A DNA stretch of 64,000 nt from an uncultured Chloroflexia bacterium (GTDB taxonomy: Bacteria > Chloroflexota > Limnocylindria > Limnocylindrales > CSP1-4). This document shows, in pieces, positions 8,303-33,561 of the stretch. The position numbers were made by a program, and so were the translations under genes. The first letter of the stretch is position 1, and each line of letters opens with the position of its first letter. The stretch is taken from NCBI GenBank assembly GCA_963813535.1, contig CAWEZH010000002.1, positions 416,001-480,000 of the forward strand, read 5' to 3'. The notes under the pieces were generated by a model, which saw only the letters and a list, made by a program, of their open reading frames with translations, had not been told where the DNA came from and made no database searches.

Positions 8303-8444
8303 CCGCCGACACGACGTCCGACTTGGTGTGCGAGCGCACCGATATCCGTCTCTGACGATAGCGCCGCCGGTCATGTGGACACGTAGGCTCCGCTGCGCCG
8401 GAGGACGGAGTGGGTGACTCCGGTGCACAGGGGGGAATCATACG

Positions 8445-11400
8445 TTGCTTCATCGCCGCGCCAGCGTGCGCGTCGCGATCGCTATGGGCGTGCTGCTCGT
8501 CAGCAGCCTCGTTGCCCCCGTCGTCTCGGCGACGGGTGGCGATCCGTCGGCGCCGCGCGTGCACGCCCGGCTCGAGGAGCCAGCCGCTTGCCGCCGTCGC
8601 TCCGCCGCCATCGGTCGATCAGGTCGTTGCCGCTGCTCCCGTCGATAGCGGCGAGTGGGGCCCCCTCCTGGACTGGGGCGTCCAGGCGAAGCACATGGCC
8701 ACGCTGTCGACGGGCAAGGTCCTCGTCTGGTCGACGGGCGACAACGCACGCGTCTGGGATCCGTCGACCGGCACGTTCACGCTGACCCCGGCGACATTCG
8801 CCGATCTCCACTGTGCCGGTCAGTCGACCCTCGCTGACGGCCGGCTGATCGTGGTCGGCGGTCAGACGGGCTCCCCGCACAACGGCCACAACATCACGTC
8901 GCTGTTCGATCCAGTGACGCAGACGTGGACCCGCGGAGCGGACATGACCGACCTGCGCTGGTACGCGACGAGCACGACCCTCCCCGATGGCAAGATCCTC
9001 GCCACGTCGGGTGACGCTCCGGACGGCACGCGCTCGACCGTGCCCGAGCTGTACGACCCGATGACTGACACGTGGACTCGGCTGACCGGCGCCTTCCGTG
9101 ACCAGCCGCTGTACCCGCTGATGTTCGTCCTCCCGAACGGCCTGACCTACGAGTCCGGTCCGAAGACGTCGACCGCGACGATCGATGTCTCCGGCGTCGG
9201 AGGCTGGACGACCGGCCCGATCGCGCCATGGTCGACCAGCGGCTATTCCGAATCAGCCGTGATGTACCTCCCGGGCAAGATCCTGCGCGCCGGTGGGGGC
9301 GATCCCGCCCAGGCCCGCGCGGCGGTCGTCGACATGACGTCGGCCTCGCCGGCGTGGCGCGAGATCGCGCCGATGGCATTCGCCCGTCGCCGGATGAACC
9401 TCACCCTCCTGGCCGACGGCTCGGTCATGGCGATCGGTGGCACCGTGCAGGCGGACAACGCGGCGACGGCCGTGCTCGCCGGCGAGATCTGGGACCCGGT
9501 CACGGAGGCGTGGACCACGGTCGCCTCGATGGGCGAGGCACGGATGTATCACTCCGCAGCAGTCCTCCTGCCGGACGGCCGCATCGTGGTCGGTGGAGGA
9601 GAGGCCGCCGGGCGACTGCGCGCCCAAGTCTATTCGCCACCCTACCTCTTCAAGGGACCACGACCGACACTCTCGGGTGCACCGGGCACGGCCGCATACG
9701 GCTCGACCTTCACCTTCACGAGTCCCGAGGCGGCCGGGCTCGCGTCCGTCGCCCTGCTCCGACCGTCGGCGGCAACGCATGCGATGGACATGAACCAGCG
9801 CTACGTCCCGCTCGCATTCACGCGCTCGGGGACCACGATCACCGCCACGGCCCCCGCATCAGGTGGCGTGGCGCCTCCGGGCGACTACATGCTCGTGGTC
9901 AAGAGCTCGGCCGGCGTGCCATCGGTCGCTTCGTGGATCCGGATCGGCACGACGGCCAGCCTCCAGCCGGGTGCCATCGCCGGCACGGTCCGCGACGGCA
10001 CGACGCTGGCACCGATCGACGGCGCGACGGTGTCGACCGGCGGCCGTTCGACCACGACGGATGCGCTCGGCGCCTACACGCTGGCCGACATCGCCGCGGG
10101 TGACGCCCAGGTCACCGTCGCGGCGAGCGGATATGCGACGGAGGTCCGCCAGGCCACTGTCGCAGGTGGTCAGACTTCGACACTCGACGTCTCGATGGCA
10201 CATCCCGGCGACATCGCCGGTCAGGTCACGAACGGCCAGACGGGCATCGGGATCGGCGGCGTCACCATCGGGTATCCGGGCGGCGTGACCATCACCGACG
10301 CGAGCGGCCAGTACGCGATCGGCGGTCTCCCCGCCGGCTCGGTCGACCTGACGTTCGCCGCGACAGGGTTCGCCAGCGAGGACCGGACGGCACTCGTGAC
10401 CGCGGGCAGCGTGACCACGCTGGACGTCCAGCTCTCACCGACCGCCACGTTCGTGACCGGTGAGGTCCGCGACGCGACGACGAATGCGACGCTCAGCGGT
10501 GCCACGGTTTCAGTGGACACGGGCCAGACAACGACCACCGATGCCTTCGGTCGCTACCGGATCGACCTGCCGCCGGGCACCTACCAGGTGACAGCGGCGG
10601 CGCCGGGGCACGTGTCGTCCACCGGCACGACCGTGATCAACGGCGGCAGCTACGCGACACTCGATATCGGGCTCGCCCCGATCGCTGTCCCGAGCACGCT
10701 GACCTTCGCGCCGGTCGCCGACGCCCAGGTCCGGTCGAGCAGTCCGACCAAGAACTACGGCACCGAGACCGAGATCAGGCTTCGACTTGGTGTCCCGGCC
10801 ACGCCCACCACGCAGTGGAGCCTGCTCCGCTTCGACGTCTCGGGGGTCGCCGGTGCCACCGTCTCCGGCGCGAAGCTCCGATTGCGGGTCACCGACGCCG
10901 GGCCGCACGGCGGCATCCTCTACCGGACGTCCGGTGGCTGGGCCGAGACCGGCGTGACCTGGAACACCACGCCCGCGTCGATCGGCTCGCCACTGTCCAG
11001 CACGGGCACGGTGGTGCTCGGCCAATGGATCGACATGCCACTGCCGCCTGGGACCGTCACGGGCAACGGCCCGCTCGATCTCCTGTTGGTGGCCGGGAGC
11101 TCGAACAGCGTCTACTACTCGAGCCGCGAGGGCGCAGATCCGCCCCAGCTCGTCCTGGACCTCGCCGGCGCTCCGACGCCGACACCCACTCCCACGCCAA
11201 CACCCACGCCGACGCCGACCCCGACACCCACGCCCACGCCCACGCCGACACCCACCCCCACCCCGACGGCGACACCCACCCCGACACCGACGCCCACGCC
11301 GACCGCGACACCCACCCCGACACCGACACCCACACCGAACCCGGCCCCCGGTGAGACGCCGATCCGTCAGATGACCTTCGAGGGAGGGCTGCGCGATCCG

Positions 11401-12081
11401 GGCACTGGCGTCGACTCCATCACGGGCGTCGTCACGCTCGATACCGCGTCGCCGATCCACGGCACGGCATCGGCCCGGGTCGCCAACACGACGGGCTACC
11501 TCCAGGAGGGATTCCCGGCGACGGCGGACACCTTCGTGACCGCGCGAGTCCGCCTCGTGGCGACACCCACCGGCTCACCCCGCATCCTGATGCTGTCGAA
11601 CGGCGGGACGACGGTCGGCAACCTCACGCTGAGCACCGCGCGCCGGCTGCGGCTGCGCAACGGCTCGACCGCGGTCGGCGCCGAATCCACCCCGCTCCAG
11701 ATCGGCAGCACGTACCTCATCGGCCTTCGCCAGACGCGTGGCACCGGCGGGAATGCGGTCCTCGGTGCCTACATCGCGCCCGACGGCACGACCTTCGGGG
11801 CGCCCTTCGCAAGCCTGACGACGGGGACATGGACGACCTCGGCCGACAGGATCCGCTTGGGCGCGACCAATGGCACGGCCGTCAACCTGACCATGGACGA
11901 CGTGCTCATCGCGAGCGGCGGTGTCCCGGCTCCGGTCGCGGCGGCGGGCGGCGCCATCGTCCTTGCCGCCGCGGTCCCGGGATCGGCGTACGCGTACGCC
12001 AGGGTCGCCACCTGGACCGGCGGCGCGTCGGTCGGTGAGCCCGTCTTCACGTTCTCCTGTCCGGTGTCGCGGGTCGCCTGA
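8445..12081 (+). CDS. Secreted copper radical oxidase (AA5/galactose oxidase-like, Kelch plus DUF1929) with 3 CarboxypepD_reg-like repeats, a DNRLRE/CBM96-like module, a PT linker and a C-terminal beta-sandwich; +1 indel near 8580
   Basis: LHCAG (Cys), RWY (Tyr), RMYHS (Tyr-His) and ATHA (His) ligand motifs; YSPPYLF; the signal peptide is in another frame (8445-8580) and joins the main ORF if one C is removed. Confidence 0.85.
11173..11345 (+). repeat. Pro-Thr low-complexity linker-coding repeat
   Basis: Degenerate CCNACN hexamer run encoding (PT)n. Confidence 0.9.
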
Positions 12082-12116: not shown

Positions 12117-15100
12117 GTGACCCTCGCGCCCAACGATTTCGCCCACCTCCACGTCCACTCCGAGTTCAGCCTGCTCGACGGCCTGGGCCGGATCACCGAG
12201 CTGGTCGATGCGGCGGCCGCCCAGGGTATGGACTCGATGGCCCTGACGGACCACGGCGCGCTGTATGGGGCGGTCGCCTTCTATCAGGCGGCGAAGAACA
12301 AGGGCATCAAGCCGATCATCGGCGTCGAGACCTACGTCGCGCCGCGGTCCATGACATCGAAGGAGGGCAAGGCCGACAGCCAGCCCTTCCACCTGATCCT
12401 GCTCGCCAAGGACTACGCGGGCTACCAGAACCTCTGCCGGCTCGCGACCGACGCCCACGTCGACGGCTACTACTACAAGCCCCGCATCGACCACGACCAT
12501 CTCGCCAGGTATAGCGCCGGGCTGATCGGCCTCTCGGCGTGCCTCGGCGGCGAGGTCGCCAAGGCCCTCGAGGTGGAGGACTGGGACCTCGCGAGGAGCG
12601 TCGCCGGCCAGTACGGCGACATCTTCGGCAAGGACGGGTTCTTCCTGGAGCTCCAGGACCATGGCCTCGCCGAGCAGACGAGGCTCAATGGTCAGCTGCT
12701 GCGACTGGCCGGAGAGACGGGCCTGCCACTCGTCGCGACCAACGACCTCCACTACGTGCGGGCCGAGCAGTCCGAGGCGCACGACGTGCTGCTCTGCGTC
12801 GGCACGGGTAACAACCTCGACACGCCGGGTCGGCTCAAGTTCGAGACCCACGAGTTCTACGTGAAGTCGGCCGCGCAGATGGCGGCCCTGTTCCCCGACC
12901 AGCAGGAGGCGATCCTGGCCAGCCGGCGGATCGCGGAGATGACCGACGTCCAGCTGCCCCTCGGGCAGCTCCGGATCCCGCATTTCCCGGTGCCCGACGG
13001 CGAGACGGTCGAGTCGTGGCTGCGCAAGGAGTGCCAGGCCGGCCTGGAGCGCCGCTACGGGAGCGTCACACCGGAGCTCCAGGAACGGCTCGACTACGAG
13101 CTCGGCGTCATCACCTCGATGGGCTACGCCGGCTACTTCCTGATCGTGGCCGACTTCATCCGCTTCGCGCGCGAGCAGGGTATCCAGACGACCTGCCGCG
13201 GGTCGGCTCCGGGCAGCATCGTCACGTACACGCTGGGCATCACACCCGTCGACCCGATCCTCTACCAGCTGCCGTTCGAGCGGTTCCTCAACCCCGACCG
13301 CGTGACGATGCCCGACATCGACGTCGACTTCGAGGACGGACGGCGCGACGAGGTGATCGCCTATGTCGGCCGCAAGTACGGCCAGGACCACGTCGCCCAG
13401 ATCATCACGTTCGGCACGATGCTTGCCCGGGCCGCGATCCGGGACGTCGGCCGGGTGCTGGGGCACTCCTATGGCGAGGTCGACCGTATCGCGAAGGCCG
13501 TCCCGAACCAGCTCGGTATCAAGCTCGAGGAAGCCCTGCAGATCAGCCCCGCGCTCCGCGAGCAGGTCGATGCCGACCCCGCCGTCAAGCGGATCATCGA
13601 TTTCGCCCACCACCTCGAAGGCGTCGCCCGTAACGCATCGACGCATGCTGCCGGGGTCGTGATCAGCCGCGAGCCGCTGACCGAGCTGATGCCGCTCCAG
13701 AAGGCGACGAACTCGGACTCGCTGATGACGCAGTACGAGATGCACGCCATCGAGGCGCTCGGGCTGCTGAAGTTCGACTTCCTCGGTCTCTCGAACCTGA
13801 CCATCCTCCGTCAGGCGGTGGATCTCGTCCGCGACAACCGCGGCGTCGAGATCGACCTCGACGCGATCCCGCTGGACGACGCGCCGACATTCGAGCTGCT
13901 GGCGTCGGGTGAGACGACGGGCATCTTCCAGCTCGAGTCGCCAGGCATGCGGCGGTATGTCCGCGAGTTGCGTCCGACGTCGGTCTACGACCTCGCGGCC
14001 ATGGTTGCCCTCTACCGGCCCGGGCCGATGGACAACATCCCTGCGTACATCCGGCGCAAGCACGGCCAGGAGCCGGTCACGTACCTGCACCCGCTCCTGG
14101 AGCCCTACCTGGAAAAGACCTACGGGATCTTCGTCTACCAAGAGGACATCATGGCCGCGGCGATCGCCCTGGGTGGCTTCACAGGCCCCGAGGCCGACAC
14201 GCTCGGCTACGCGATCCGCAAGAAGAAGTCGAGCGTCCTTCGCGCCCAGAAGGAGAGGTTCGTCACCCAGGCCGCCGAGCGCGGGGTCGAGCCCAAGGTC
14301 ATCGACGCCGTCTTCACCGCCTTCGAGCCGTTCGAGCGGTACGGGTTCAACAAGGCCCACGCCACCTGCTATGGCCTGATCGCCTACCAGACCGCCTACA
14401 TGAAGGCGAACCACACGGTCGACTACATGGCCGCGGTGCTGACGGCCTTCCGCGCGAACGAGGAGAAGGTCGCGGCGGCCGTCGCCGAGTGTCGCCGCAT
14501 GGCCATCGAGGTCCGACCGCCGGATGTCCACGCCAGCCACCTCGAGTTCACGGTCGAGGGTGACGCGATCCGCTTCGGGCTGCTGGCGGTGAAGAACGTC
14601 GGACAGGGGGCGATCGAATCGATCATCGCGGCCCGAGCCGAGGGCGGTGAGTTCGTGTCCCTCACCGACTTCTGCACCCGCATCGACCTTCGGCTTGCCA
14701 ACCGCAAGGTCCTCGAAGCGCTCATCAAGGTCGGCGCGCTGAACGGGTTCGGCCATCCCGCGCAACTCCTCCTCGGCCTCGACGACGCGATCAACGCGGC
14801 GCAGGCGACACAGCGCGACCGGATCACCGGTCAGACCTCGCTCTTCGACATGGGCGCAGCCGACGCGCTTGCGTTCGAGCGTCCGCTGCCGGCGGCGACC
14901 GAGGTCCCCGTCCGCGAGCGCCTGCGCTGGGAGAAGGAGCTGCTCGGGCTCTACCTGTCCGAGCACCCGATGGGCGAGGTCGCCGAGCAGGTCGGCAGGT
15001 TCGTGAACGCGTATTCCGGTGACCTCAAGGACGAGACGCTCGACGGGCAGCGGGTCGTCGTCGGCGGCATCGTGACCGCCCAGCGCATCGTCATCACCAA

Positions 15101-15914
15101 GCGCCAGGAGTCGATGGCCATCGTGACCATCGAGGATCTCCAGGGGTCGATCGAGGTCGTCGTGTTCCCCCGGATGTTCGAGACGACGCGGCCCCTGCTG
15201 CGGGACGGCGCGATCCTGCTCATCGCCGGCCGGGTCGACCACAAGGGCGAGGAGGTGTCGCTGCTCGCCGACCTCATCGCCGACTGGGACGACGCCGCGG
15301 CACGCGGACCGGACGAGTTCGCCCGCGACGTGGCGGCGGGCGACCGGGGTGGCCGCAATGGCTCGTTCCGGCGGACACCCATCGCAGTCGGCCCGGGCCC
15401 TGGTCCCGCGATCGTCGCCGAGCCGCGGCCCGCCTTCGTCTCCGCGCGTCGGGACGCCGAGGACGGGAACGGGGCGGCCGGCCCGCCCGCCTCGATGCCG
15501 CGGATCGAGCCCGGCGTGCCGGTGCCGACCTACATGGAGGCACCGGGGGCCGCGGCCGGATCGAACGACGACGGACCGGATGAGCCGGCCGTGCCGGACG
15601 AGGCGCGGGCGCGGATCGTCGGAGACGCGACAGCCGACGCGCCGGTCGCGGCCGGACCTGGAGCCGTGCTGCACGTGCGCTTCGAAGGCGGCGCCGGCCC
15701 CGATCGGCTGATCCGCGCCATGGAGACCGTGAGGCTGCTCCTGCGTGACCGACCGGGAGGCACGCGGGTCGTCCTGCACGTGCCCGCAGCGGGCGGCGGA
15801 GAGGCGCTCCCCATGGAGCTCCGCTGGGGCGTGGCGTACGACGCGGAGCTACTGGCCGAGGTGCGACGCCAGCTCGGCGACGGCCTGGTCGAGCTGCGCC
15901 TGATCACTGCCTAG
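12117..15914 (+). CDS. dnaE: DNA polymerase III alpha subunit
   Basis: PHP motifs HLHVHSEFSLLDG and ALTDHG; RGSA, PDIDVDF, STHAAGVVI, KFDFLGL and YGFNKAHA; OB fold; no intein seen. Confidence 0.98.
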   Translation: MTLAPNDFAHLHVHSEFSLLDGLGRITELVDAAAAQGMDSMALTDHGALYGAVAFYQAAKNKGIKPIIGVETYVAPRSMTSKEGKADSQPFHLILLAKDYAGYQNLCRLATDAHVDGYYYKPRIDHDHLARYSAGLIGLSACLGGEVAKALEVEDWDLARSVAGQYGDIFGKDGFFLELQDHGLAEQTRLNGQLLRLAGETGLPLVATNDLHYVRAEQSEAHDVLLCVGTGNNLDTPGRLKFETHEFYVKSAAQMAALFPDQQEAILASRRIAEMTDVQLPLGQLRIPHFPVPDGETVESWLRKECQAGLERRYGSVTPELQERLDYELGVITSMGYAGYFLIVADFIRFAREQGIQTTCRGSAPGSIVTYTLGITPVDPILYQLPFERFLNPDRVTMPDIDVDFEDGRRDEVIAYVGRKYGQDHVAQIITFGTMLARAAIRDVGRVLGHSYGEVDRIAKAVPNQLGIKLEEALQISPALREQVDADPAVKRIIDFAHHLEGVARNASTHAAGVVISREPLTELMPLQKATNSDSLMTQYEMHAIEALGLLKFDFLGLSNLTILRQAVDLVRDNRGVEIDLDAIPLDDAPTFELLASGETTGIFQLESPGMRRYVRELRPTSVYDLAAMVALYRPGPMDNIPAYIRRKHGQEPVTYLHPLLEPYLEKTYGIFVYQEDIMAAAIALGGFTGPEADTLGYAIRKKKSSVLRAQKERFVTQAAERGVEPKVIDAVFTAFEPFERYGFNKAHATCYGLIAYQTAYMKANHTVDYMAAVLTAFRANEEKVAAAVAECRRMAIEVRPPDVHASHLEFTVEGDAIRFGLLAVKNVGQGAIESIIAARAEGGEFVSLTDFCTRIDLRLANRKVLEALIKVGALNGFGHPAQLLLGLDDAINAAQATQRDRITGQTSLFDMGAADALAFERPLPAATEVPVRERLRWEKELLGLYLSEHPMGEVAEQVGRFVNAYSGDLKDETLDGQRVVVGGIVTAQRIVITKRQESMAIVTIEDLQGSIEVVVFPRMFETTRPLLRDGAILLIAGRVDHKGEEVSLLADLIADWDDAAARGPDEFARDVAAGDRGGRNGSFRRTPIAVGPGPGPAIVAEPRPAFVSARRDAEDGNGAAGPPASMPRIEPGVPVPTYMEAPGAAAGSNDDGPDEPAVPDEARARIVGDATADAPVAAGPGAVLHVRFEGGAGPDRLIRAMETVRLLLRDRPGGTRVVLHVPAAGGGEALPMELRWGVAYDAELLAEVRRQLGDGLVELRLITA

Positions 15915-16479: not shown

Positions 16480-17981
16480 ATGTTCTGGGATGGATCACAT
16501 TGGATCAGCGAATCTGCACCACCCCCGGTCAGACGTCACCGCCGCCGCCGTGACTGGCTGGCGACCGGGGTAATGGCGCTCGCCGTGGTGGGCACCTTCG
16601 TTCCACTTGTTGCAACGTCGGCGGCGGCTCCACCACCCAGCCGCCCCCTGATGAACGGTTGGTCATCGACATACCAAACCACCGTCCTCAGTGAGACGAG
16701 CAGGAGGCTCCGGTACAGCGGCAGCTGGAGGCGCGCGGATCACCCGGCCTACATCGGAGACCGCGTTCGTTCGTCCGACCAGAAGGGAGCCAGCGTCAGT
16801 CTCTCCTTCAGCGGAACTGGGGTGTCGTGGATCGGACCCGTGGGTCCCACGCGCGGCACTGCCTCCGTGTACCTGGACGGGCGTCGGATCAAGACGGTCA
16901 ACACGTACGGACGGCGGTTCATGCCGGCGCGTGTCCTGTTGCGGTTCACGTGGGACACCGTTCAGACGCATCGCCTCAAGATCATCGTCGCGGGCACGAC
17001 CGGTCACCCGACCGTCGCTGTGGATGCCTTCGTGGTCCGCGGTCGAAGTAAGCCGCAACAGGTGACGACCGACCCTGTGAATAGCGCACCGACCGCGGCC
17101 CCCACCCCCGCACCGACCGCGGCCCCCACCCCCGCACCGACCGCGGCCCCCACCCCCGCACCGACCGCGGCCCCCACCCCCGCACCGACCGCGGCCCCCA
17201 CCCCCGCACCGACCGCGCGCCCGTGGCGACCCCCGCACCGACGCCGCCCGTGGCGACCCCCGCACCGACGCCGCCCGTGGCGACCCCCGCACCGACGCCT
17301 AGGCTGACCTTCGACGCAGAGTGCGCCGGGTCGAGTCTTGATCCAGCTTTCCGCGCGCTTTACGGCCAGGGCGACCCAGGTTTCGGCCTCGACTCCGACT
17401 TCATGGCGGACCTGCGACAAGTATCCGTGGCGAACGGCCTCTGTACGATCACGGCGCAGCGCATGACGACCCCGATGGGTCGGCCATACGCGTCAGCATG
17501 CTTCGCCACGTTCGGCACGTTCGCACAGACGTACGGGACGTGGGAGGCGCGGCTCCGATATCCGGCCGGGCAAGGCGTCTGGCCCGCGTTCTGGCTCCTG
17601 CCGGTGGGCCAGAAGGGACCGTATCCCGAGATCGACATTCTCGAGGCCTATCCCGCTCCTCCAGGCGCGGGTGGCGGCTCAGGTGACAATCTGATCGTTC
17701 ATACGCTCCATTACGGCTTAGGCCTGAACCATCACACCGTCGTCGACATGGGCGGAAACATGACGACCGACTTCCATGTCTACAGGCTCGTCTGGACGCC
17801 AGGCAAACTCGTGTTCTCCGTGGACGGGCGAGTGACCAGCACCATCACGGCGAACGTACCGTCGACACCGATGTACCCGATCCTGAACCTCGCGATGGGC
17901 GCGCCGGGATATCGCGTAGACGGGACCACGCCTGACCGATTAGTCATGGACATCGACTACGTTCGGGTGTACTCGTCGTAG
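16480..17981 (+). CDS. Secreted GH16 glycoside hydrolase with an N-terminal galactose-binding-like beta-sandwich and TPAP linker; frameshift inside the linker (about 17214-17220)
   Basis: MFWDGSHW start after GGAG; RRDWL plus hydrophobic signal; WPAFWLLP and catalytic EIDILE; MDIDYVRVY end; the two ORFs join at the repeat junction. Confidence 0.85.
17086..17300 (+). repeat. Tandem repeats: 5x 24 bp (GCACCGACCGCGGCCCCCACCCCC) then about 3x 27 bp (GCACCGACGCCGCCCGTGGCGACCCCC)
   Basis: Exact units read directly; encode APTAAPTP and APTPPVATP. Confidence 0.95.
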
Positions 17982-18242
17982 GGTTTAGCGACACCCGAAC
18001 GGCCGTCCCGGCTGCCGCCCACACCGGTCCGGTCGTCGACACAGCTCAGACGGCTGAGCACGCTGCTGACACCGCCGCCGTCAACTCCATGGCCTGATAG
18101 ATACGGCGCTTCGCTGATGCGCAGCGCCGCTTCACCGAAGTTGGACTCGAACAGATCTGCACCGCAGAGCAGGCGGGACATGGCGTCGCGACGCCGAGTG
18201 CATCGTCTAAGAGCCCCACACCGGCGTCGAGTGATGGCTCGA

Positions 18243-18691
18243 ATGCTGCCACCGATCACGTCGGGATGACGTCTGTATCCCCTTGACGCCGTACGTATGG
18301 GCTACCAAACTGTACGCCTCGAGGGGGGAGCGCGCGACCCAGTCCCGTGCCCCAACCATCTGCGGACCAGGATCCGATGGCGACTCACCGTCGGGTCTTG
18401 TGGCCTATCTTCCAGCCGGGGGAAGTGGGTTCGATGGGGGTGACACGGAGGTCTCGCAGGGTCGGCGAATCGCCCATGATCGCGGTCGTTTGCGCCGGGC
18501 CCAGCCTGGGGATGAGCGTCGCGAATGACGCTGCCAGCCTGACCCTACCGACGCCCACCACGCTCCCAGTCCGTCGGGTCGAAAGCGCCCGGGCGAGGCT
18601 GCGTGATCGAATCGTGGGCGAGGGATCCTGACGATGGTAGCCGCCGTTGCTCCGGCCCGGGTGGGTCGGGTGATGGCGCGCGTCTTCACGC
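18243..18691 (+). repeat. Copy 1 of a ~450 bp non-coding direct repeat (putative promoter plus structured leader RNA)
   Basis: High identity to 23075-23536; TTGACG at 18283; several hairpins; upstream of a GT2 gene. Confidence 0.9.
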
Positions 18692-18760
18692 CACCGGCGC
18701 GCAATCTGGACGAATCGTCGATCGGTGACGGCGACCTCGCCCGTCTCCTCATCTAGGGCC

Positions 18761-19756
18761 ATGGTCGCTACCGCCGCTCCGGCAGCGCCACTCGTCCCGG
18801 TGTTCGATGATCGCCCCGCCTCTGACGCGAGGAACGTCCTCGTTGCAGTCCCAGCCCTGAATGAGGAGCGCTTCATTGGCAGCGTGGTGCACGGTGTGCT
18901 CCTCGAAGGGTTCCGATGCCTCGTCGTCGACGACGGCTCGTCAGATCGAACGGCGGCAATCGCGTCGGCGGCAGGGGCCATCGTCAAGCGGCACGATCGG
19001 AATCTCGGCAAAGCGGCTGCCCTGAACAGTGCCTTCGAGTACGCCCGCCGGAAGGGGGTCTTGGTACTGGTCGCGATGGACGGGGACGCGCAACACGATC
19101 CGCAACAGATCAAGGAGCTGCTCCGGCCGATCCGGGCAGGTCAAGCGGATATCGTCCTTGGCTCGCGCTTCCTTGCGCCGGAGGCGTCCGAACTCCCCCG
19201 CGTCCGCCGCCTCGGCGTGAAGGCTTTCACTGCGACGGCGAATATCCTGTCGGGTGTCCTTCTCACCGACTCGCTCAGCGGTTTTCGGGCATTCAATCGG
19301 TCAGCGATCGAGGCTATGCGCTTTAAGAGCGATCGCTTCTCCGTCGAATTCGAGATGCAGTTCATGGCACGGAACGGGGGCCTACGACAGGTGGAGGTTC
19401 CGATCAACACCAGTTACACCGATCCCCCAAAGCGAAACTCGGTGGGCTACGCGCTCAAGCTCGTCGATGGCCTGGTCCGACTAGTTGGACGCTACCGCCC
19501 GCTGCTATTTTTCGGCGTCCCGGGCCTGGCGTCTCTGGTCGTGGGAATCGTGATCGGCACGCTCGTCATCGACACCTATCAGCGCTCGCAAGAGTTGGCT
19601 GTCGGTCTGACTTTGGCCGCTGTGCTGCTTGTCATCCTCGGGGCTATTGCGGCGTTCGCCGCCGTTCTACTTCACGTCCTCCGTGCGATGTTCCTGGAGC
19701 TCGAGGCTGACATAAATGCGCTGTCGGCGACGGAAGGCCTTCCGTATCGAAGATAG
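18761..19756 (+). CDS. Glycosyltransferase family 2 (DPM1-like, two C-terminal TM helices)
   Basis: VPALNEE, VVDDGSSDRT, NLGKAAA, MDGDAQHDP, GSRF and DSLSGFRA motifs. Confidence 0.92.
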   Translation: MVATAAPAAPLVPVFDDRPASDARNVLVAVPALNEERFIGSVVHGVLLEGFRCLVVDDGSSDRTAAIASAAGAIVKRHDRNLGKAAALNSAFEYARRKGVLVLVAMDGDAQHDPQQIKELLRPIRAGQADIVLGSRFLAPEASELPRVRRLGVKAFTATANILSGVLLTDSLSGFRAFNRSAIEAMRFKSDRFSVEFEMQFMARNGGLRQVEVPINTSYTDPPKRNSVGYALKLVDGLVRLVGRYRPLLFFGVPGLASLVVGIVIGTLVIDTYQRSQELAVGLTLAAVLLVILGAIAAFAAVLLHVLRAMFLELEADINALSATEGLPYRR

Positions 19757-19829
19757 TCCGCGTGCAGGACGGGACGCTAACGGCGCCCATAACCCCGCCT
19801 TGGGCGCACGACCATCGTTGTTGTTGGCG

Positions 19830-20942
19830 ATGAAGTACGCGATGGCCCTCGACACGGCCGGGCGTCCGGGTTCCGATCGCGAGGATCGGAGCGATCCGGG
19901 ATGCACGCTGAGCATCTGCGTCCCGACATTCAACCGTCCGGTCCTCGTCCAACGAGCCATTCGCTCGATTCTCGAATCGGTGCCCGATCGCACGAGCGAC
20001 GTCGAGATCATCGTTTCTGACAACTCACCGGACGTCTCCGAGGACGCGTGCCGTCGGGCCCTCGGGGATTGGTCCGGAGATTCGCTCTACATCGGCAACC
20101 GTCCTGACATCGGGATGGCGGCCAACTTCAACCAATGCATCGCGCGAGCGTCGGGTCGGTTCATCCTCTTCGTTCACGACGACGACCGTCTCCTTCCGGG
20201 CGCCGTGCCCGCGATCCTGGACGCGCTGGCCGCTGGGGACGACCCCGCCCGGGTGCTCCTGTTCGGCGTCCACTTCGTCGACGCAGCGGGACGCATCCTC
20301 CGGCGGCAGGAATTCTGCCGCCAGGAGTGGGTCGGCCCGAGCGGTGCCCTTCAGCGACTGCTTTCTGACAACGGGCTCGCCTGGTTCCCGGGGATCGTCG
20401 TCAGCCACGACGCGTACGACTCCGTAGGCGCCTTCGACGCTGACGTCGGAAACGCGACAGACCTCGAGATGTGGGTCCGTCTGTTCTCGCGATTTGGTCT
20501 GCGATGCGTTCCGAGCACGATCAGCGCATATTCCGTCCACGCCGGTTCCGCCACCCAAACCACGGCGTTCGACAGTGCGGCCGTCGGGACGATCCAGGAG
20601 ATCTTCCAGCGCGCCCGGACCATGGCGGTCCTTCGCGCCGAGACGATCGATGGATGTCAGGCCCAGTTCCTCCCGCAGGTCATCCTCGGTTCAGCCGCCT
20701 TCAGCGCGCGGTCGGGCGACCTGGCAGGAGCCCGAAAGGTGATGGTCCTGTTCGACCTGCCGTCAGTCAGATCTCTTGGGCCGTCGCTGGCGTGGCTGCC
20801 GGTTCGATTGATCTTCTCCGTACTCGTCCGATGCCCGCCCGCCCTTGTACGCCCGTTGATGAGTTGGGTGGACCGTTTCGACCTGGTACAGCGCGTTCGA
20901 GCCGTTGGGAATCGCGGTCGCGGCGAGCTTCCTCTTTGCTAG
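19830..20942 (+). CDS. Glycosyltransferase family 2
   Basis: LSICVPTFNR, IIVSDN, GMAANFN, HDDD and DLEMWVRL motifs; start approximate. Confidence 0.88.
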   Translation: MKYAMALDTAGRPGSDREDRSDPGCTLSICVPTFNRPVLVQRAIRSILESVPDRTSDVEIIVSDNSPDVSEDACRRALGDWSGDSLYIGNRPDIGMAANFNQCIARASGRFILFVHDDDRLLPGAVPAILDALAAGDDPARVLLFGVHFVDAAGRILRRQEFCRQEWVGPSGALQRLLSDNGLAWFPGIVVSHDAYDSVGAFDADVGNATDLEMWVRLFSRFGLRCVPSTISAYSVHAGSATQTTAFDSAAVGTIQEIFQRARTMAVLRAETIDGCQAQFLPQVILGSAAFSARSGDLAGARKVMVLFDLPSVRSLGPSLAWLPVRLIFSVLVRCPPALVRPLMSWVDRFDLVQRVRAVGNRGRGELPLC

Positions 20943-21100
20943 CCCCACTGCCACCGCGGGCACTCGCAGGGAGCGATCAAGAAGCTCGGGTGCCGCGTCA
21001 TGACAGAGTCGGTTGAACCAAACTGGCTCTGCATTTCGCCCACGCGGCCGCGTGCGTCGCGTGTCGGACGGGACCGGGAGAGGCGGCTGGCGCGACGGAT

Positions 21101-21928
21101 CTAGGCGGCGTCGAACGCGTCAACCAGGAGCCTGATTGATCGGTATGGCTGCGCGTCCGAACCCCTGAATAGCTGGATCTTGATCTCTTGGTCGTCTCCC
21201 GGCGTGGGCACGGTGAAATCGACCATGCCGGTCCACGTATTCCCTGGCTCCACGGAGATGGGGTCCGTCGCCGCGAGGCGCTTCGACGCAGATTCCACGA
21301 CGATCCGATAGGGCTGGGCCGAGCCGTCGTGGTTGGAGATACCCACAGTGATCGTGGTAGGAGTTCCTGACGGGACGCGTGCCGGCAGTCCTTCAGCCGT
21401 ACCGTCCGGGCCGAGCACGAAGAACTCGGTCGTTCGGGATGGAGCAGCGATGCCGAGAGCGAGCAGCGCCACGACCAGGACGACGACCAACCCAACCGCG
21501 ACACCCGCCCAGCGACCACCCACCCCCCGCCACCGCGAGGGATCTAGCGGGGCGGTCCCGGAGGGAGGGCCGGCGGCCCGACGACCCCTCCGCCGCCACC
21601 AGGCAACCGCTGTCGCGAACAGCGTAACGGCACTCACCGCACCGACGATCGAGTCCGCCGTTAATCCGCCAGGGCTGAGGTTGAGGAACGGCGCCACGAA
21701 GACGATGATGCCGAACGAGAGACTGAACGTGAGCGCCGATCGCTCGAGGGCGTCGAGCTCGCCGGGCGGGAAGAGCGCCATGCTGACGCTGTAGCCCGGT
21801 AGGACCAGAGCCGCGACGATGCCGACCGGCAGTCGCAGGAGGACCGGCAACTCGAGAACGGCCATCGCCATTGCAAGGAGGCATCCGAGCGTGACAAGCA
21901 GAAGGTCGAAATTGGCAGGCCACCTCAT
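21101..21928 (-). CDS. DUF1616 domain-containing membrane protein
   Basis: LVLPGYS..ALFP, LERSALTFSLS, TEFFVLG, VGISNH and PYRSIRL match DUF1616; ATG 21928 (MRWPANF). Confidence 0.8.
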   Translation of the reverse strand: MRWPANFDLLLVTLGCLLAMAMAVLELPVLLRLPVGIVAALVLPGYSVSMALFPPGELDALERSALTFSLSFGIIVFVAPFLNLSPGGLTADSIVGAVSAVTLFATAVAWWRRRGRRAAGPPSGTAPLDPSRWRGVGGRWAGVAVGLVVVLVVALLALGIAAPSRTTEFFVLGPDGTAEGLPARVPSGTPTTITVGISNHDGSAQPYRIVVESASKRLAATDPISVEPGNTWTGMVDFTVPTPGDDQEIKIQLFRGSDAQPYRSIRLLVDAFDAA

Positions 21929-23040
21929 CGCCCTCGACCGCCGGAAGCCCTCGACCGTGTCGACCAGCGACCCGACAGCGACCAGTTCGACGGCCGTCGC
22001 GGCACCGTCTCCGCTGGCCACGGCGGTCGCGCCTGCGTCGGCTGCGGTGTCACCGCCGTTCGATGCCACGCCGGCGCCCGGTGTCGCCGAGTCAGCTGGT
22101 GCCTGGCGGACGTCCCCGGCCGATCGAGGCAGGATCGACGGCCGTCGATCGGTCGAGTTCGTATAGGCGGGTCGCACGATGCCGACGATCTCCGCGCTCC
22201 GGCCTTTGCTGAGCGCTGTGATCGGGATGTGGGCGCCCCGTTGGCCCACGACGACGAGCCGCTGCGCTCCGATCGCGATCTCGGCGCGCCACCGCTCGCC
22301 GCGCTTGCGCACGCTATCCACGCGACCGGAGATCGCCACGAGCTGCCATGTGTGGGCGGACGTCAGCGGTCCCGCGATCCGCAGCGGTGTCGGCACTGCC
22401 GCTGATCCGCGCCGCTCGACGGACGTCGCTCGCAGCCGCGGAGCGCCGTATGCCGTCCCGACCGTCCCGATGGCCCTGATCCGGGCGCCGATGCCCGGGG
22501 CGCCCACCCCCTTCGGCAGGAGGACTTCGATGGCGCCGGTCGAGTCCTGTACGACGATTCGGCGCCCGCTGGCATCGAGCAGGTTGGCGGAAGCCGTCAC
22601 GACGGCCTCGACTGCAATGTCGCGATCGCCGACCCGTAAGGCCGACGCGATTGGGATGACGGAGGGCACGTCCAGCGACGTTCTCGGCGTTCCGGATGCC
22701 TTCGGCGTCGGCGTCGAATCAGCAGCGAGCAGCATGACATCCCAGCCGTCGTCTGCCCGAGCACCAAGGTCCCGCCTTTGTCTCGGCGGTCGCAACGGGA
22801 TCAAAAGAGCCATTCTGCCATTGGTTCCCGGTCGGAACGGCCAGACCGCGTGACCTTCGCCGAGCCCGCTGGGGGTCGCCCCGGACGTCCACGGGCGGGG
22901 CCGCTGGTGGAGTGCAGCGTCTCGGAGGCCCACACCCGCCTGGCGCGATGACACGAGCCCCCGGGCGTCGGGGGAGGCGCCGGTCGCTCCGTACACCCGG
23001 CGGTTCGAGCGAGTCGAAACCGTAAGCCTCCCGCTGGAGT
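21929..23040 (-). pseudogene. Remnant of an OB-fold-repeat surface protein, in frame with DUF1616
   Basis: VEAVVTA..RRIVVQDSTGAIEV..GARIRAIGTVGTAYGAPRL and a second OB-like unit (LVAISGRV..AEIVGIVR..ILPRSAGDV); the upstream part looks decayed and has no signal peptide. Confidence 0.55.
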
Positions 23041-23074
23041 CGGTGCCAGGCGTCGCGGTGCGGTTCGTGTCGCC

Positions 23075-23536
23075 ATGCTGCCACCGATCACGTCGGGATG
23101 ACGTCTGTACCCCCTTGACGCCGTACTGATGACTATGAAACTGTACGCTTCGAGGGGGAGCGCGCGACCAGTTCCGTGCCCCAACCATCTGCGGACCAGG
23201 ATCCGATGGCGACTCACCGTCGGGTCTTGCAACCTGTCGGGTCTTGCAACCTATCTTCCAGCCGGGGGAGGTGGGTTCGATAGGGGTGACACGGACGTCT
23301 CGCAGGGTCGGCGAATCGCCATGATCGCGGTCGTTTGCGCCGGGCCCCACCTGGGGATGAGCGTCGCGAATGACGCTGCCAGCCTGACGCTACCGACGTC
23401 CACCACGCTCCCAGTCCGTCGGGTCGAGAGCGCCCGGGCAAGGCAGCGTGATCGCATCGTGGGCGAGGGGTCCTGCCGATGGTAGTCGCCGTTGCTCCGG
23501 CCCGGGCGGGTCGAGCGATCGTGCGCATCTTCACGC
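23075..23536 (+). repeat. Copy 2 of the ~450 bp non-coding direct repeat, with a 17 bp internal tandem duplication
   Basis: Matches 18243-18691; GTCGGGTCTTGCAACCT x2 at 23219-23252; TTGACG at 23115. Confidence 0.9.
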
Positions 23537-23795
23537 TGTCATGCCGACGTCTCGACACACGAGCGTCAGCGGGTCGCAGTCCACGGAGCAATCCTGAACG
23601 ACCCAGAATGACATTGATGTCGCGCCGCCTACTCCGCGGCCTTGGTACTTAGTACACATGCTGCGCTTCTTTGAGGCAGAGTCGTCAGACGTCGCGATCG
23701 CCCACCGGCACGTGACCTACGCGTTCCCCGCCACTCCAGGGATTTGCGGTCCTCGGTCGGGACCAGTGCGAGATTACGCGCGAGCCGGCGGACTT

Positions 23796-25106
23796 GTGAA
23801 GCGGGACGCCTCCTCGAGTGGTCCAGATCGTAAAGAGCGAGATGCCGGTCGCACTTCCCCAGATTCGCCGGTCCGTCGACCAGTACGTCCCGTTGGTCCT
23901 TCCACAGGCGCGAGCGATTCGCCTCTCCCGATCGTTCTCGCGCTCATGGCCTTCTACCCACCCGCCTATCGCGCTGGAGGACCGCCGCGCACCGTGCCAA
24001 GGATCGTGGATGAGCTCAGCGATGAGTTCCGGTTCCTCGTGATCACGCGAGATCGAGATCTCGGTGTCTCGACGCGATTGGCCGGCGTCGTGCCCGATCG
24101 TTGGGTCAACTACGGGAGCGCTCGCTGCCTGTACCTGTCGACGCGGCGTCGGCTGATGGGGGGCCTCATCGCCTCGGTTCGGCGTTCGCAGCACGACGCC
24201 CTGTATCTCAACAGCCTATTCTCGATCGAGTTCAGCTTGATCCCGCTCTTGTTTCGCCAGCTTCGCTTCGTGCCGCGACGGGGATTGGTGATTGCGCCGC
24301 GGGGCGAGATGGACGATAGCGCCCTCGCGATCAAACGCCGGAGAAAGCGGCTCTATATTTGGTGTGTCCAACAGCTGCGCCTACTTGACGATGCGATCTG
24401 GCACGCCGCCAGCAAGGAAGAGGCCCAGTCCATCGGCCAGCGGTTTGGCACGCAGACCCGAGTGGCGATCGCCTCTGACATTCCGATTCGGCCCAGCATG
24501 GCAGCAAGCCAGACTCCGAAACAGGCAGGGACTCTTGAGGTGATCTTCCTGAGTCGAATCGCTCGGATGAAGAACCTTGACTTCGCAATCGCCGTGCTTG
24601 CCGCAATCAGAGGCGGCGTGAACTTCAACGTCTTCGGTCCTATCGAGGATCGACAATATTGGGCTGATTGTCAGCGCCTTGCTGTTCGGCTCCCCGGCAA
24701 CGTGAGGCTCCGTTATCGAGGGCTGGTCAAACCGGACGAGGTCACCCAGGTCATCGAGCGTCACCACCTTTTCTTCCTGCCCTCACAAGGCGAGAGCTTC
24801 GGACATGCGATCGTGGAGTCGCTCATGGCCGGGTGCGCGGTCCTGATCAGCGACCAGACTCCTTGGCGCAACTTGGAAGCACGGCGCGCAGGATGGGAGC
24901 TCCCACTATCACGCCCGGATCTCTTCTGCGAGGTCATCGAACGATGTGTCGGCATGACCCAGGCAGAGCTTGCGACGTGGTCGGCTGGCGCGCGACAGCT
25001 GGGTCGCGAGATCGCAGACGATCCGACCCTTGACGCAGCTTATCGACGGATCTTTAGAGCAGCGCTCAACACCGGCCAAGAGGGGCAGCTGACGCCTCAG
25101 GGCTAG
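23796..25106 (+). CDS. Glycosyltransferase family 4
   Basis: FYPPAYRAGGP, APRGE, FLSRIARMKNL and PSQGESFGHAIVES motifs; start uncertain (23658, 23796 or 23946). Confidence 0.88.
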   Translation: MKRDASSSGPDRKERDAGRTSPDSPVRRPVRPVGPSTGASDSPLPIVLALMAFYPPAYRAGGPPRTVPRIVDELSDEFRFLVITRDRDLGVSTRLAGVVPDRWVNYGSARCLYLSTRRRLMGGLIASVRRSQHDALYLNSLFSIEFSLIPLLFRQLRFVPRRGLVIAPRGEMDDSALAIKRRRKRLYIWCVQQLRLLDDAIWHAASKEEAQSIGQRFGTQTRVAIASDIPIRPSMAASQTPKQAGTLEVIFLSRIARMKNLDFAIAVLAAIRGGVNFNVFGPIEDRQYWADCQRLAVRLPGNVRLRYRGLVKPDEVTQVIERHHLFFLPSQGESFGHAIVESLMAGCAVLISDQTPWRNLEARRAGWELPLSRPDLFCEVIERCVGMTQAELATWSAGARQLGREIADDPTLDAAYRRIFRAALNTGQEGQLTPQG

Positions 25107-25192
25107 CCATGCCACAACGTCCACAACAGCGGTCTGTACGCTGCTGGCCGGTCGGCGATAACAGGCTCATGGGAGGACTTTGGAGATCACAG

Positions 25193-25366
25193 ATGGCCCC
25201 TCGTCCGGTCCTTGTGTATGACATGACAAAGCCCGAAATCGAGTCGGCGGTGCCCGACATGCACACTCTGGCGCTGCCCGTGGCGATCCGTATCGACTCG
25301 TCGTTGTTTCAACGGCTTGAAGGGACGAGCGATGACGACCTCGCCCAGTGGGGTACGGCGACGTGA
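25193..25366 (+). pseudogene. Short ORF resembling the N-terminus of a creatininase-family protein (truncated)
   Basis: LVYDMTKPEIESAVPDMHTLALPVA resembles the creatininase start (xxMTxxEI...LPVG) but lacks the EQHG motif; GGAG upstream. Confidence 0.35.
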
Positions 25367-26280
25367 GCCGCATCCTTATCACGGGCGCATTGGGCGCGGT
25401 CGGGGCACGATTGTGGCGCCTGCTGCAGGAGCGCGGACACGAGGTTCACGGTTGCGACCTCAGACAAACCGATCTCCCGAATTACGACCGGTGTGACGTC
25501 GCGGACTATCGACTCCTCGATTCTCTGTTCGACGAGCACAGTTTCGACGTTGTCTATCACGCTGCGGCCGAGTTCGGTCGCCTTAATGGCGAGCGTCATT
25601 ACGAGTCACTCTGGCGAACGAACGCCATCGGGACCAAAAACATCCTGCGGCTGCAGGAAGAACGCCGATTTCGACTGGTCCTGTTCTCGAGTAGTGAGGT
25701 CTACGGCGATTGGCCGGGCGTCATGGCCGAAGAGGTGCTCGACGAGCACCCGATCAAGCAGATGAACGACTACGCGATCACCAAGTGGGTGAACGAGCTG
25801 CAGGCGTTGAACTCTGCGGCCCAATTCGGCACCGAGACCGTCAGGGTCAGGCTCTTCAACACCTACGGACCTGGCGAGTACTACTCCCCGTTTCGAAGCG
25901 TGATCTGCATCTTCATCTATTGCGCCCTGCACGACCTTCCGTACACCGTGTACCTGGGCCACCATCGCACCAGCACCTACATCGATGACACTGTGCGGAC
26001 GCTGGCCAACATCAGCGACAACTTCGTGCCGGGCGCCGTATACAACATTGCCGGCGATGAGTACCACGACATCAAGTCCGTGTCCGACCTCATCCTGCAA
26101 AAGGTCGGCAAGGACGACCACCTCGTCACCTACATGCCAAACGAAGCGCACAACACGAAGGACAAGCGAACGGATGCGACCCGGGCCCGCGTCGATCTTC
26201 GACATGAGCGGACCGTCGGGCTCGAGGAAGGGATCGACCGGACGATCGCTTGGCAAAGGGCAACCTATGACGTCCGGTAG
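25363..26280 (+). CDS. NAD-dependent epimerase/dehydratase
   Basis: ILITGALGAVG, SSSEVYG, YAITK and FNTYGPG motifs. Confidence 0.92.
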   Translation: MSRILITGALGAVGARLWRLLQERGHEVHGCDLRQTDLPNYDRCDVADYRLLDSLFDEHSFDVVYHAAAEFGRLNGERHYESLWRTNAIGTKNILRLQEERRFRLVLFSSSEVYGDWPGVMAEEVLDEHPIKQMNDYAITKWVNELQALNSAAQFGTETVRVRLFNTYGPGEYYSPFRSVICIFIYCALHDLPYTVYLGHHRTSTYIDDTVRTLANISDNFVPGAVYNIAGDEYHDIKSVSDLILQKVGKDDHLVTYMPNEAHNTKDKRTDATRARVDLRHERTVGLEEGIDRTIAWQRATYDVR

Positions 26281-26417: not shown

Positions 26418-27692
26418 GTGGAGGCACGGGCTCAGGATCCGAGGGTGGCAAGCCGTCGCGACCCCGACGCGCCCCTCAGGATCCTGGTTGTTCAGGAGAC
26501 GGATTGGATCGATCGAAATCCGATCCTTCACCATCGGATGCTGGAGTCACTCTCGATCGGCGGAGATGACATCACGGTCTTGGACTACGAGACCCTTTGG
26601 GGCCGCAGCGGGAGGTTGCCGCTCTGGCAGCGCCGGCGCGTCTGGACGGATGTGTCGAAATTCCTTCCCAGCTCACGCATCGACGTCATTCGGCCGGCGA
26701 TGCTCCGTGTGCCGGGGTTGGCGCGTCTCTCTTGGCTTCTTGCCACGTGGCGGGAGCTGAGGCGGTACATGCACGCTGGTCGACCCGACGTGATCGTTGC
26801 GTATGGGATCACGAATTCGTTTCTCGCACGCCTCGTCGCGCGCAGGCACCGCATCCCGTTCATCTTCCACCTATTCGACTCGCTCCATGCGTTGGCGGAG
26901 CCCGTCGCATTGCGTCCGCTCGCAGCATTCGTCGAGGGCGTGGTACTGCGGTCAGCGGATCGCGTCGTGATCGCGCATCGGGCGCTGAGCGGCTACGTGA
27001 CCCGCATGGGAGTCCGGCCTGAACGCGTGATTCTGATCGCCAACGGCGTGACTCGGCGACAGCCGGAACCATCAACGCGCGCGGCCATGCGGTTGCGACT
27101 CGGCATCGCAGACGGCGAGGTCGCGCTGCTCTTCGTAGGGTGGCTGTACCGCCACAGCGGTCTGGTCGAGCTCGCCCTCGAGCTCGCGGGGGACATCACC
27201 AGATACGCCAGATTCAAGGTCGTCGTCGTGGGAGACGGAGATATAGGCACTACCCTAGCAGAGATCAAGGCGGCCAAGGGCCTAGGTGATCGCCTGATAT
27301 TGACTGGGCGACGGCCGGTTGGCGAGATTGCCGACTTCATCGTTGCGTCGGACCTGTGTCTCGTGCCTTCAATGCCGGACAAGGCGATGCGATACGTCGT
27401 TCCCTCCAAGGTCGATGAGTACATCGAAGTCGGTAGGCCCGTAGTCTCGACGCGACTCGAGGGAATGCTGGCGGAGTTCCGCGACATGGCTGGCATCATC
27501 TGGGTGGATGACGCGGCGGAGGTCCTGCCCCGCCTGGATGAACTGTTGTCAGGACCGCGGAAATCGAGCGACGTGCTCGCTGAGCTCTCTCGAGCGTGCG
27601 CGGAGTATGTGGCAACTCGTGAGGACTGGGAGACTGTGACGGGTCGTTTCCGGGCCGTTCTCACAGATGCAACCTCTCGATCCCGTGGCTGA
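26418..27692 (+). CDS. Glycosyltransferase family 4
   Basis: LIANGV, LLFVGWL, VVGDG and PSKVDEYIEVGRPVVST motifs. Confidence 0.88.
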   Translation: MEARAQDPRVASRRDPDAPLRILVVQETDWIDRNPILHHRMLESLSIGGDDITVLDYETLWGRSGRLPLWQRRRVWTDVSKFLPSSRIDVIRPAMLRVPGLARLSWLLATWRELRRYMHAGRPDVIVAYGITNSFLARLVARRHRIPFIFHLFDSLHALAEPVALRPLAAFVEGVVLRSADRVVIAHRALSGYVTRMGVRPERVILIANGVTRRQPEPSTRAAMRLRLGIADGEVALLFVGWLYRHSGLVELALELAGDITRYARFKVVVVGDGDIGTTLAEIKAAKGLGDRLILTGRRPVGEIADFIVASDLCLVPSMPDKAMRYVVPSKVDEYIEVGRPVVSTRLEGMLAEFRDMAGIIWVDDAAEVLPRLDELLSGPRKSSDVLAELSRACAEYVATREDWETVTGRFRAVLTDATSRSRG

Positions 27693-33195: not shown

Positions 33196-33514
33196 CCGCG
33201 ACCTCGTCAGGACTTACCATCGGGGACTTCGTCTGACGCCAGAGCTGCGACGCGATCGTGGCGGCCATGATGGCGCCGATCGCGAGCAGGACGGCCGCGC
33301 CGACCGGCAGGTCTGGAGGAACGGCGTGGGCCGCGAGCACTCCGCCCGTCCCATCCGTCCTTTCCCCGGGATCCCGACCGGCGATGAATGTCACGCTTGG
33401 TGAATGCGCGTCGGCGTTCCCCCGATAGTGTACTGAGGCCGACAGTCCGACTGCCTCCTTGTTAGCAAGCAGGAAAACGCCGATCACCAAGGCTATGAGG
33501 GCGAGTGTCCTCAT
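33185..33514 (-). CDS. Small protein with an N-terminal signal/TM and a C-terminal TM followed by basic residues
   Basis: MRTLALIALVIGVFLLA...VPPDLPVGAAVLLAIGAIMAATIASQLWRQTK; GGGAG upstream. Confidence 0.45.
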   Translation of the reverse strand: MRTLALIALVIGVFLLANKEAVGLSASVHYRGNADAHSPSVTFIAGRDPGERTDGTGGVLAAHAVPPDLPVGAAVLLAIGAIMAATIASQLWRQTKSPMVSPDEVAGDG

Positions 33515-33561
33515 GCGGGGCCGCTCCCACCCGCCATCCCTCTCACCCACGGCAGCGGACT

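Follow-up and report, generated by a model that had tools for sequence, protein, structure and literature searches.

A direct repeat before two glycosyltransferase gene runs of a Chloroflexota genome is probably a duplicated promoter region with a gene-start relic

Segmental duplication of a promoter region together with a 5' gene fragment is a general phenomenon in the rearrangement of polysaccharide clusters. Two kinds of leader are known from long polysaccharide operons. JUMPStart is a sequence of a few tens of nucleotides, whereas EAR of Bacillus and the LoaP-dependent leaders are cis-acting RNAs that secure read-through of a long exopolysaccharide operon. RfaH is described, and LoaP mentioned, in PMC6391919, which cites work on JUMPStart and RfaH. 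We analyzed a 64 000-nt stretch of the genome of an uncultured Chloroflexia bacterium (contig CAWEZH010000002.1, positions 416 001–480 000), hereafter the window, to which all coordinates below refer unless another contig is named. It carries an element of ~450 nt in two direct copies, copy A and copy B, spaced 4.8 kb apart in a single glycan island. A reading of this DNA from its letters alone (the sequence-only reading) had taken the element for an undescribed structured leader RNA or antiterminator, reused as a portable promoter-plus-leader module. We instead consider, with a probability of roughly 70%, that the element is a duplicated promoter region plus the stub of a gene start, produced by rearrangement of the glycan island. 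This explanation draws largely on an orthologous locus in another species of the same genus (genome G032).

Among the described systems, segmental duplication offers the closest parallel. As expected from it, two copies lie in a variable glycan island, one of them apparently at the ancestral place, and the repeat ends inside a gene; the genes downstream have been replaced or have disappeared, and each copy points towards a glycosyltransferase gene. The locus differs from such cases in that no recombination mechanism (insertion sequence element or long flanking homology) was identified, and the parallel is drawn from one comparison genome. JUMPStart/ops with RfaH is similar in being a conserved sequence in the transcribed leader of long polysaccharide operons, common to clusters with differing downstream genes. 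Unlike JUMPStart, our element measures ~450 nt, and an ops-like GGTAG occurs only in the region of the relic start codon (ATGGTAGCC/ATGGTAGTC), being GGTCG in G032. Moreover, the 92.9%-complete window genome yielded one NusG match (PF02357; C2:65393-65725, 350 kb from the island) and no paralogue, so that no RfaH/LoaP-type partner was detected. With EAR and the LoaP-dependent leaders the locus has in common the notion of a cis RNA for read-through of a long exopolysaccharide operon. It differs from them in that no Rfam family, EAR and known riboswitches included, was matched by the element of either species (E up to 1), and neither predicted terminators to read through, nor a LoaP-like paralogue, nor significant conserved structure were found.

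The likeness of the two copies is far beyond chance. Copy A (18243–18691) and copy B (23075–23536) are linked by five co-linear repeat families (D2, D3, D4, D6 and D9) with 88–95% identity per block, and their pairwise alignment has 35 substitutions in 450 ungapped columns (92.2% identity). The copies are further distinguished by four 1-nt indels and a 17-nt tandem duplication in B (23219–23235 and 23236–23252). Repeat search and alignment thus agree with the sequence-only reading, which had noticed high-identity direct repeats, 1-nt indels, a 17-bp duplication, TTGACG near each 5' end (found at 18283–18288 and 23115–23120) and a same-strand glycosyltransferase gene soon after each copy (a GT2 ORF behind A and a GT1/GT4-family ORF behind B). 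The base composition of the element is unremarkable. Within the whole 3.28-Mb assembly (3 contigs), BLAST returned these two copies (E 2e-235 and 1e-174). Comparison with the G032 orthologue moves both edges outward: the left edge of B lies at 23041, ~35 nt beyond 23075, and A matches the orthologue to ~18700, past the end of the A/B homology. Copy A is accordingly given as 18243–18700 (plus strand; nhmmer envelope 18243–18720) and copy B as 23041–23536 (plus strand), with 23041–23074 common only to the G032 orthologue.

The 3' end of the element is the beginning of a gene. In G032 the last ~70 nt comprise the start codon and the first ~22 codons of GT2a, a 250-aa glycosyltransferase whose ORF begins within the conserved 3' block (MVAAVAPVAAGRAMVPVFTPPAPEP; MVAAVAPVAAGRAMVPVFTPPAPEPDVEFVLIAIPALNEER). 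Read in the GT2a frame, copy A gives MVAAVAPARVGRVMARVFTPPA (MVAAVAPARVGRVMARVFTPPARNLDE...), followed by unrelated sequence and a stop after 40 codons, and copy B gives MVVAVAPARAGRAIVRIFT, followed by unrelated residues. The relic in A occupies 18634–18756 on the plus strand (ATG and ~22 codons whose homology ends at ~18700, after which unrelated sequence reaches the TAG at 18754–18756), and the relic in B 23479–23652, also on the plus strand (ATG and ~19 codons whose homology ends at 23536, again followed by unrelated sequence as far as the stop). Approximately 16 of 22 residues, counted from the translations, are identical between the relic of A and the N-terminus of GT2a. Since the GT2a start is kept as a dead relic in both copies, the repeat appears to be a segmental duplicate of an upstream region and the 5' end of a gene. 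The element had been described as non-coding; no evidence of a gene was found in the upstream ~390 nt, but the description fails for the origin of the last ~70 nt. There, and only there, lies a decayed protein gene of the kind that the sequence-only reading had itself set against its RNA proposal. A keeps ~4 more ancestral codons than B. Therefore, A would not have been copied from present-day B, but rather before B lost the gene.

The window and G032 share a 24.5-kb glycan island (window 16032–40595, G032 contig C10 39816–15461), in which most aligned blocks have 75–90% DNA identity. In the window it starts directly after dnaE (12117–15914). According to Pfam assignments, the gene order in G032 is GH16, GT2', DUF1616 (opposite strand), element, GT2a, DUF2304, GT1, epimerase and GT4, whereas in the window it is GH16, copy A, GT2 (331/343 aa), GT2', DUF1616 (opposite strand), copy B, GT1, epimerase and GT4. 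The element of G032 is thus the divergent intergenic region between the DUF1616 gene and the GT2 gene. Because copy B likewise adjoins the DUF1616 gene (21101–21931, minus strand, divergent from B, with an ORF open upstream to 23350), and because B and G032 share the 35 extra upstream bases, B probably occupies the ancestral place. Copy A would then be at a derived position, between the GH16 gene and the GT2 gene (18761–19756, plus strand). The latter is a paralogue and not the orthologue of GT2a: five of the six island orthologue pairs compared have 72–90% amino acid identity (GH16, 58%), and the protein behind A shares only 40% with GT2a. It has its own paralogous N-terminus (MVATAAPAAPLVPVF), its start at ATG 18761 is backed by N-terminal homology, and its nearest relatives in the genus (genomes G139 and G146) are 52% identical. 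Copy B is followed on the plus strand by the GT1/GT4-family gene (23658–25106), the epimerase gene (25348–26280) and GT4 (26418–27692); homology of the GT1/GT4-family protein to its orthologue begins near GTG 23796, the probable start. Between B and this gene a remnant at 23546–23646 (plus strand) matches the 3' end of G032 DUF2304 and the start of the GT1 ORF (75% over 101 nt), indicating that ~1.1 kb, namely GT2a and most of DUF2304, was lost behind copy B. DUF1616 homologues are present in 5 of 131 genomes of the genus, which marks the island as variable, and it fits a variable, possibly exchanged, surface-glycan locus.

These arrangements suggest the following course. In the ancestral layout, kept in G032, the element would have filled the divergent gap between DUF1616 and the run GT2a-DUF2304-GT1-epimerase-GT4. 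A segment reaching from ~15 nt upstream of a pair of TGACGTC-like boxes to about codon 23 of GT2a may then have been copied to a second site, between GH16 and the paralogous GT2 gene, giving copy A. Later, the original site would have lost GT2a, except for roughly its first 19 codons, together with most of DUF2304, leaving copy B at the head of GT1-epimerase-GT4. Each copy would supply a promoter (TTGACG, 16–17 nt, nAnACT) and, just upstream, a regulator site formed by the tandem boxes, with the ~320-nt leader and the dead gene start as passengers. The relic ORF of A stops 4 nt before the GT2 ATG, and it could be translationally coupled to that gene, although this is speculative.

The putative promoter and operator lie in the best-conserved block of the element (18243–18288 in A, 23075–23120 in B). 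It contains two TGACGTC-like boxes, 11 nt apart, with the palindrome ACGTC-N5-GACGT (18258–18272 in A, 23090–23104 in B), immediately upstream of a TTGACG that is invariant in all three copies (A, B and G032). Considering the position, orientation and conservation of this block, we propose that the first 46 nt act at the DNA level as a candidate promoter and operator. The candidate -10 would be CAAACT in A (18306–18311, plus strand), located 17 nt after TTGACG and scoring below the threshold of the sigma-70 scan, GAAACT in B (23137–23142, 16-nt spacer) and GACACT in G032 (17-nt spacer). Counted from this guessed -10, the leader would be ~440 nt long to ATG 18761 in A and ~370 nt in G032; with GT1 homology starting near GTG 23796, that of B would be ~650 nt. 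Genome-wide, the only exact sites of the palindromic box are the two in A and B. At 2–3 mismatches there are 226 forward and 230 reverse sites, compared with 28 and 32 in the backwards control, which fits GC-rich coding sequence. To our knowledge, promoters of this phylum are poorly known.

Conservation was compared by segment, using as a neutral proxy the four-fold synonymous sites of six island gene pairs between the window and G032 (680 of 993 identical, 68.5%, i.e. 31.5% divergence). The box region with the -35 differs at 1 of 46 positions (2%) between A and B and at 4 of 45 (9%) between A and G032. The corresponding values are 5/28 and 6/29 for the spacer with the -10, 18/311 (5.8%) and 85/313 (27%) for the leader, and 11/65 (17%) and 12/65 (18.5%) for the relic codons. 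Between species, the leader has therefore diverged to a level near that of synonymous sites. The element as a whole is 79% identical to its G032 counterpart ungapped and 70–72% with gaps counted, whereas other alignable intergenic pieces of the island reach 75–84% ungapped. Clustering of mismatches is mild (P 0.013–0.16), the longest identical run being 17 against 18.7 expected. Only the first 46 nt are clearly better preserved than the neutral proxies.

As far as searched, the element is confined to two species. BLAST against 61 relatives, and then against all 131 genomes of the genus, found a full-length orthologue only in G032 (E 4e-64, 71% identity), so that 2 of the 131 genomes, including the window's own, carry the element. 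Neither 401 genomes of the order nor 401 of the phylum added a further one; two short order-level matches (46 and 34 nt; E ~1e-5 per genome) were taken as chance. A three-copy nhmmer profile was without a match in 17 other loci (E up to 10). Around the DUF1616/GT2 homologues of genomes G139, G146, G140 and G017 no match had an E-value below 1.3, and 84 kb of the G032 contig contained just the one copy. Likewise, the element was not found upstream of GT2 or DUF1616 homologues in three other species. The idea of a reused promoter-plus-leader module consequently stands in part: the same segment does precede two glycosyltransferase runs in the same orientation, but it is neither mobile nor widespread and, in that sense, not portable. 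Pattern scans gave two candidates that were rejected, an AT-rich, unrelated metagenome locus for the conserved stem (L026) and a chance match in unrelated sequence among genome contigs for the 3' block (L027). Six DNA runs from soil or other metagenomes, among which the source sample may be included, contain 9–22% of the words of the stretch. Read assembly from four of these runs gave short contigs only, two of which bridge the 3' end of copy A onward (18571–18721 and 18620–18878); it returned no cover over copy B and is uninformative on expression.

The case for a structured RNA was examined with the same three sequences, which come from two species. The G-U-rich stem at 18368–18400, the AGCGTCG hairpin and the nested CTACC/GGTAG, GCCCAC/GTGGGC and CACGC/GCGTG helices pointed out by the sequence-only reading were all found in both copies, and the GAAA to GAGA loop change is present as it was described. 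The G-U-rich stem (11–13 bp) and a 12-bp stem at 18402–18431 form two adjacent leader hairpins (18368–18431, plus strand; 23197–23277 in B, where the 3' arm is duplicated). Their arms are invariant in the three copies, the only changes being one-sided G/A changes opposite U. The hairpin AGCGTCG-CGAA-TGACGCT (18515–18532, plus strand; 23360–23377 in B) has seven pairs, five invariant and two with one-sided wobble-compatible changes in G032. Two local hairpins thus survive through plain sequence conservation, with one-sided wobble-compatible changes only. The nested 3' helices are broken in G032, where GCCCAC/GTGGGC loses 4 of 6 pairs, CACGC/GCGTG 2 of 5 and CTACC/GGTAG 1 of 5.

Folding statistics gave no significant support for a conserved structure. 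The single-sequence minimum free energy (MFE) was no better than that of shuffled sequences (z -0.62 for the plus strand, +0.22 for the minus strand). RNAalifold proposed 125 pairs (covariation term, -1.06 kcal/mol), of which 10 are compensated and 24 are disrupted in one copy or more. This structure scores above pair-count controls, but it was derived from the same alignment, and therefore 100 column-shuffled alignments per region served as a fairer control. Against these, z was -1.92 for the whole element, -0.87 for the leader and -1.71 for the 5' half. The 10 compensatory pairs (7.3 expected) were equalled by 15 of 100 shuffles for the whole element and by 34 of 100 for the leader. For the helices of the sequence-only reading, the observed covariation score was reached in 160 of 500 shuffles. 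Rfam 15 has no match inside the element in window positions 17000–25000, nor at E up to 1 in the G032 locus (L003), which agrees with the earlier impression that it belongs to no recognised family. One Guanidine-II match at 20193–20246 (20.6 bits against a gathering score of 32; E 0.98), outside the element and within the GT2' coding region, was dismissed as chance. The covariance model R1, built from the two adjacent hairpins, found the known copies and one extra match (E 0.79) in the own genome, and eight matches at E 0.003–0.1 per genome, i.e. at chance level, in the 131 genomes of the genus. A simple consensus scan, which may not fit this phylum, found no terminator-like site in 17900–18900 or in 22800–23800, and no tRNA-like gene was found. 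With shuffles matching folding and covariation, the 3' helices broken in G032 and a single NusG, the proposal of a structured cis-acting RNA or antiterminator was not borne out; lack of covariation had been named at its outset as telling against it, and covariation here is indeed no higher than in shuffles.

A number of observations weigh against a duplicated promoter region with passengers. The sigma-70 consensus scan (9-of-12 rule) reports no promoter in either copy, the proposed -10 fits the consensus at only 3 of 6 positions, and no other part varies more between A and B than the spacer with the -10 (5/28). The search of sequencing runs found no RNA run containing the stretch that could speak for promoter activity or a start site. 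The order of events depends on one orthologue and is not firmly rooted. Between A and B the leader (5.8%) has diverged less than the dead relic codons (17%; Fisher P 0.009), which could reflect selection on the leader, gene conversion or a small sample (11/65). The arms of the first hairpin are invariant with a loop that differs in G032, alifold energies of the whole element and of the 5' half lean towards stability (z -1.7 to -1.9), and the plus strand (-138 kcal/mol) folds better than its complement (-106 kcal/mol).

Some of these points would be accounted for if the ~320-nt leader, or its 5' half with the hairpins, were a lineage-specific structured cis-regulatory RNA such as a riboswitch, attenuator or processive antiterminator. 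The length of the leaders (~440 nt in A, ~370 nt in G032), the invariance of the 11-bp stem arms around a variable loop, the wobble-compatible changes in two hairpins and the strand asymmetry (z down to -1.9) fit such an RNA, as does the central leader, which differs by 4.0% between A and B compared with 10.7% in the rest of the element together (Fisher P 0.012) and 17% in the relic codons. We nevertheless regard it as unlikely, given no Rfam family, an MFE z of -0.62 and a leader alifold z of -0.87, compensatory pairs equalled by shuffles, 3' helices broken in G032, interspecies leader divergence of 27% near the synonymous 31.5%, no terminator-like hairpin, one NusG only, model R1 finding nothing credible elsewhere, and the element not being found upstream of GT2/DUF1616 homologues in three other species. 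The contrast of 4% in the central leader with 17% in the relic codons makes selection on the 5'-half RNA a candidate; that this RNA (hairpins 18368–18431 and 18515–18532) works together with a regulator at the TGACGTC boxes and is selected in both copies seems to us equally doubtful. Slightly less improbable, though still not favored, is that one or both copies are functionless leftovers in neutral decay, with the runs transcribed from elsewhere, for instance A by read-through from GH16. The overall conservation does equal that of other island intergenic DNA and of synonymous sites, indels are many (including the 17-nt duplication in B), the consensus scan gives no promoter, and no terminator-like site separates A from the co-oriented GH16 gene. 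Decay alone fits poorly with the far better preservation of the first 46 nt (4/45 differences against ~31% at four-fold sites) and with copies that are still 92% alike despite 17% divergence in the dead relic codons. In addition, both the G032 element and copy B occupy a divergent gap, so that the glycosyltransferase run at either site requires its own promoter.

Two further explanations carry little weight. The element might encode a small protein or a regulatory leader peptide, either the 40-aa (A) and 57-aa (B) ORFs from the relic ATG or the sense ORFs of 81–118 aa. Both window copies preserve the relic ATG with a GAGGG motif 8 nt upstream, and the stop of A's relic ORF 4 nt before the GT2 ATG would permit coupling. 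Yet the three reading frames share nothing past about codon 22, and the longer sense ORFs are not preserved in G032, where a 2-nt indel leads to a stop. Five element ORFs gave no Pfam match, protein searches found no homologue of the 118-aa sense ORF of copy B besides the window's own protein and none of its 125-aa antisense ORF, and in eight blocks free of indels the mismatches did not follow a three-base period (P 0.20–0.93). We consider this highly unlikely. Least tenable of all, and close to negligible, is a mobile (MITE-like) element or a part of a plasmid or phage. The sharp boundaries on both sides and the presence of two copies in one genome might suggest it, and a MITE had been mentioned from the start as an alternative. 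Instead, there are just two copies, 4.8 kb apart in one island; the 21 inverted pairs listed include no terminal inverted repeat, the right end falls within a gene start, and one copy is at the orthologous place in G032. Plasmid and phage collections contained no match, and the metagenome and genome pattern scans had no credible one. Duplication of a promoter region with a gene stub thus remains our preferred explanation.

Several other features of the region were noted. The island as a whole is common to the window species and only one other species of the genus at ~85% DNA identity. On the minus strand, 21949–23040 is a stretch of ~1.1 kb, in the frame of DUF1616, that is absent from G032, whose DUF1616 protein has 276 aa. 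It keeps the frame open to 23350, giving a 749-aa ORF, with no Pfam match for 288 aa; the extra frame may represent an N-terminal fusion domain, an independent gene or junk. Between GT1 and the epimerase gene, ~258 nt (25067–25323) have no G032 counterpart, the aligned blocks of G032 abutting there (L018 5694/5690). Farther downstream, an intergenic stretch of 366 nt (33196–33561) matches G032 C10 22848–23298 with 75–76% identity; within it, 33365–33451 matches two places in G032, which seems to carry a local duplication of ~87 nt. Upstream of copy A, tandem 12/24-nt and 27-nt repeats at 17061–17300 encode a Pro/Thr/Ala-rich linker just before the GH16 domain, for which the PT-repeat Pfam match is weak (E 0.06). 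Just upstream of dnaE, 8410–12081 encodes a large secreted-type protein with a galactose-oxidase-like Kelch propeller, CarboxypepD_reg repeats and CBM96.

The repeat is of ordinary origin and, as it stands, matters little. For the search for noncoding RNAs it offers a caution: two paralogous copies mimic conservation, and it is the true orthologue that reveals near-synonymous divergence of the leader. The 46-nt box region is a concrete candidate operator and promoter. For the organism, the locus would be a small, clear example of how a variable glycan island is re-wired, by copying a promoter region with a gene stub before another glycosyltransferase gene.

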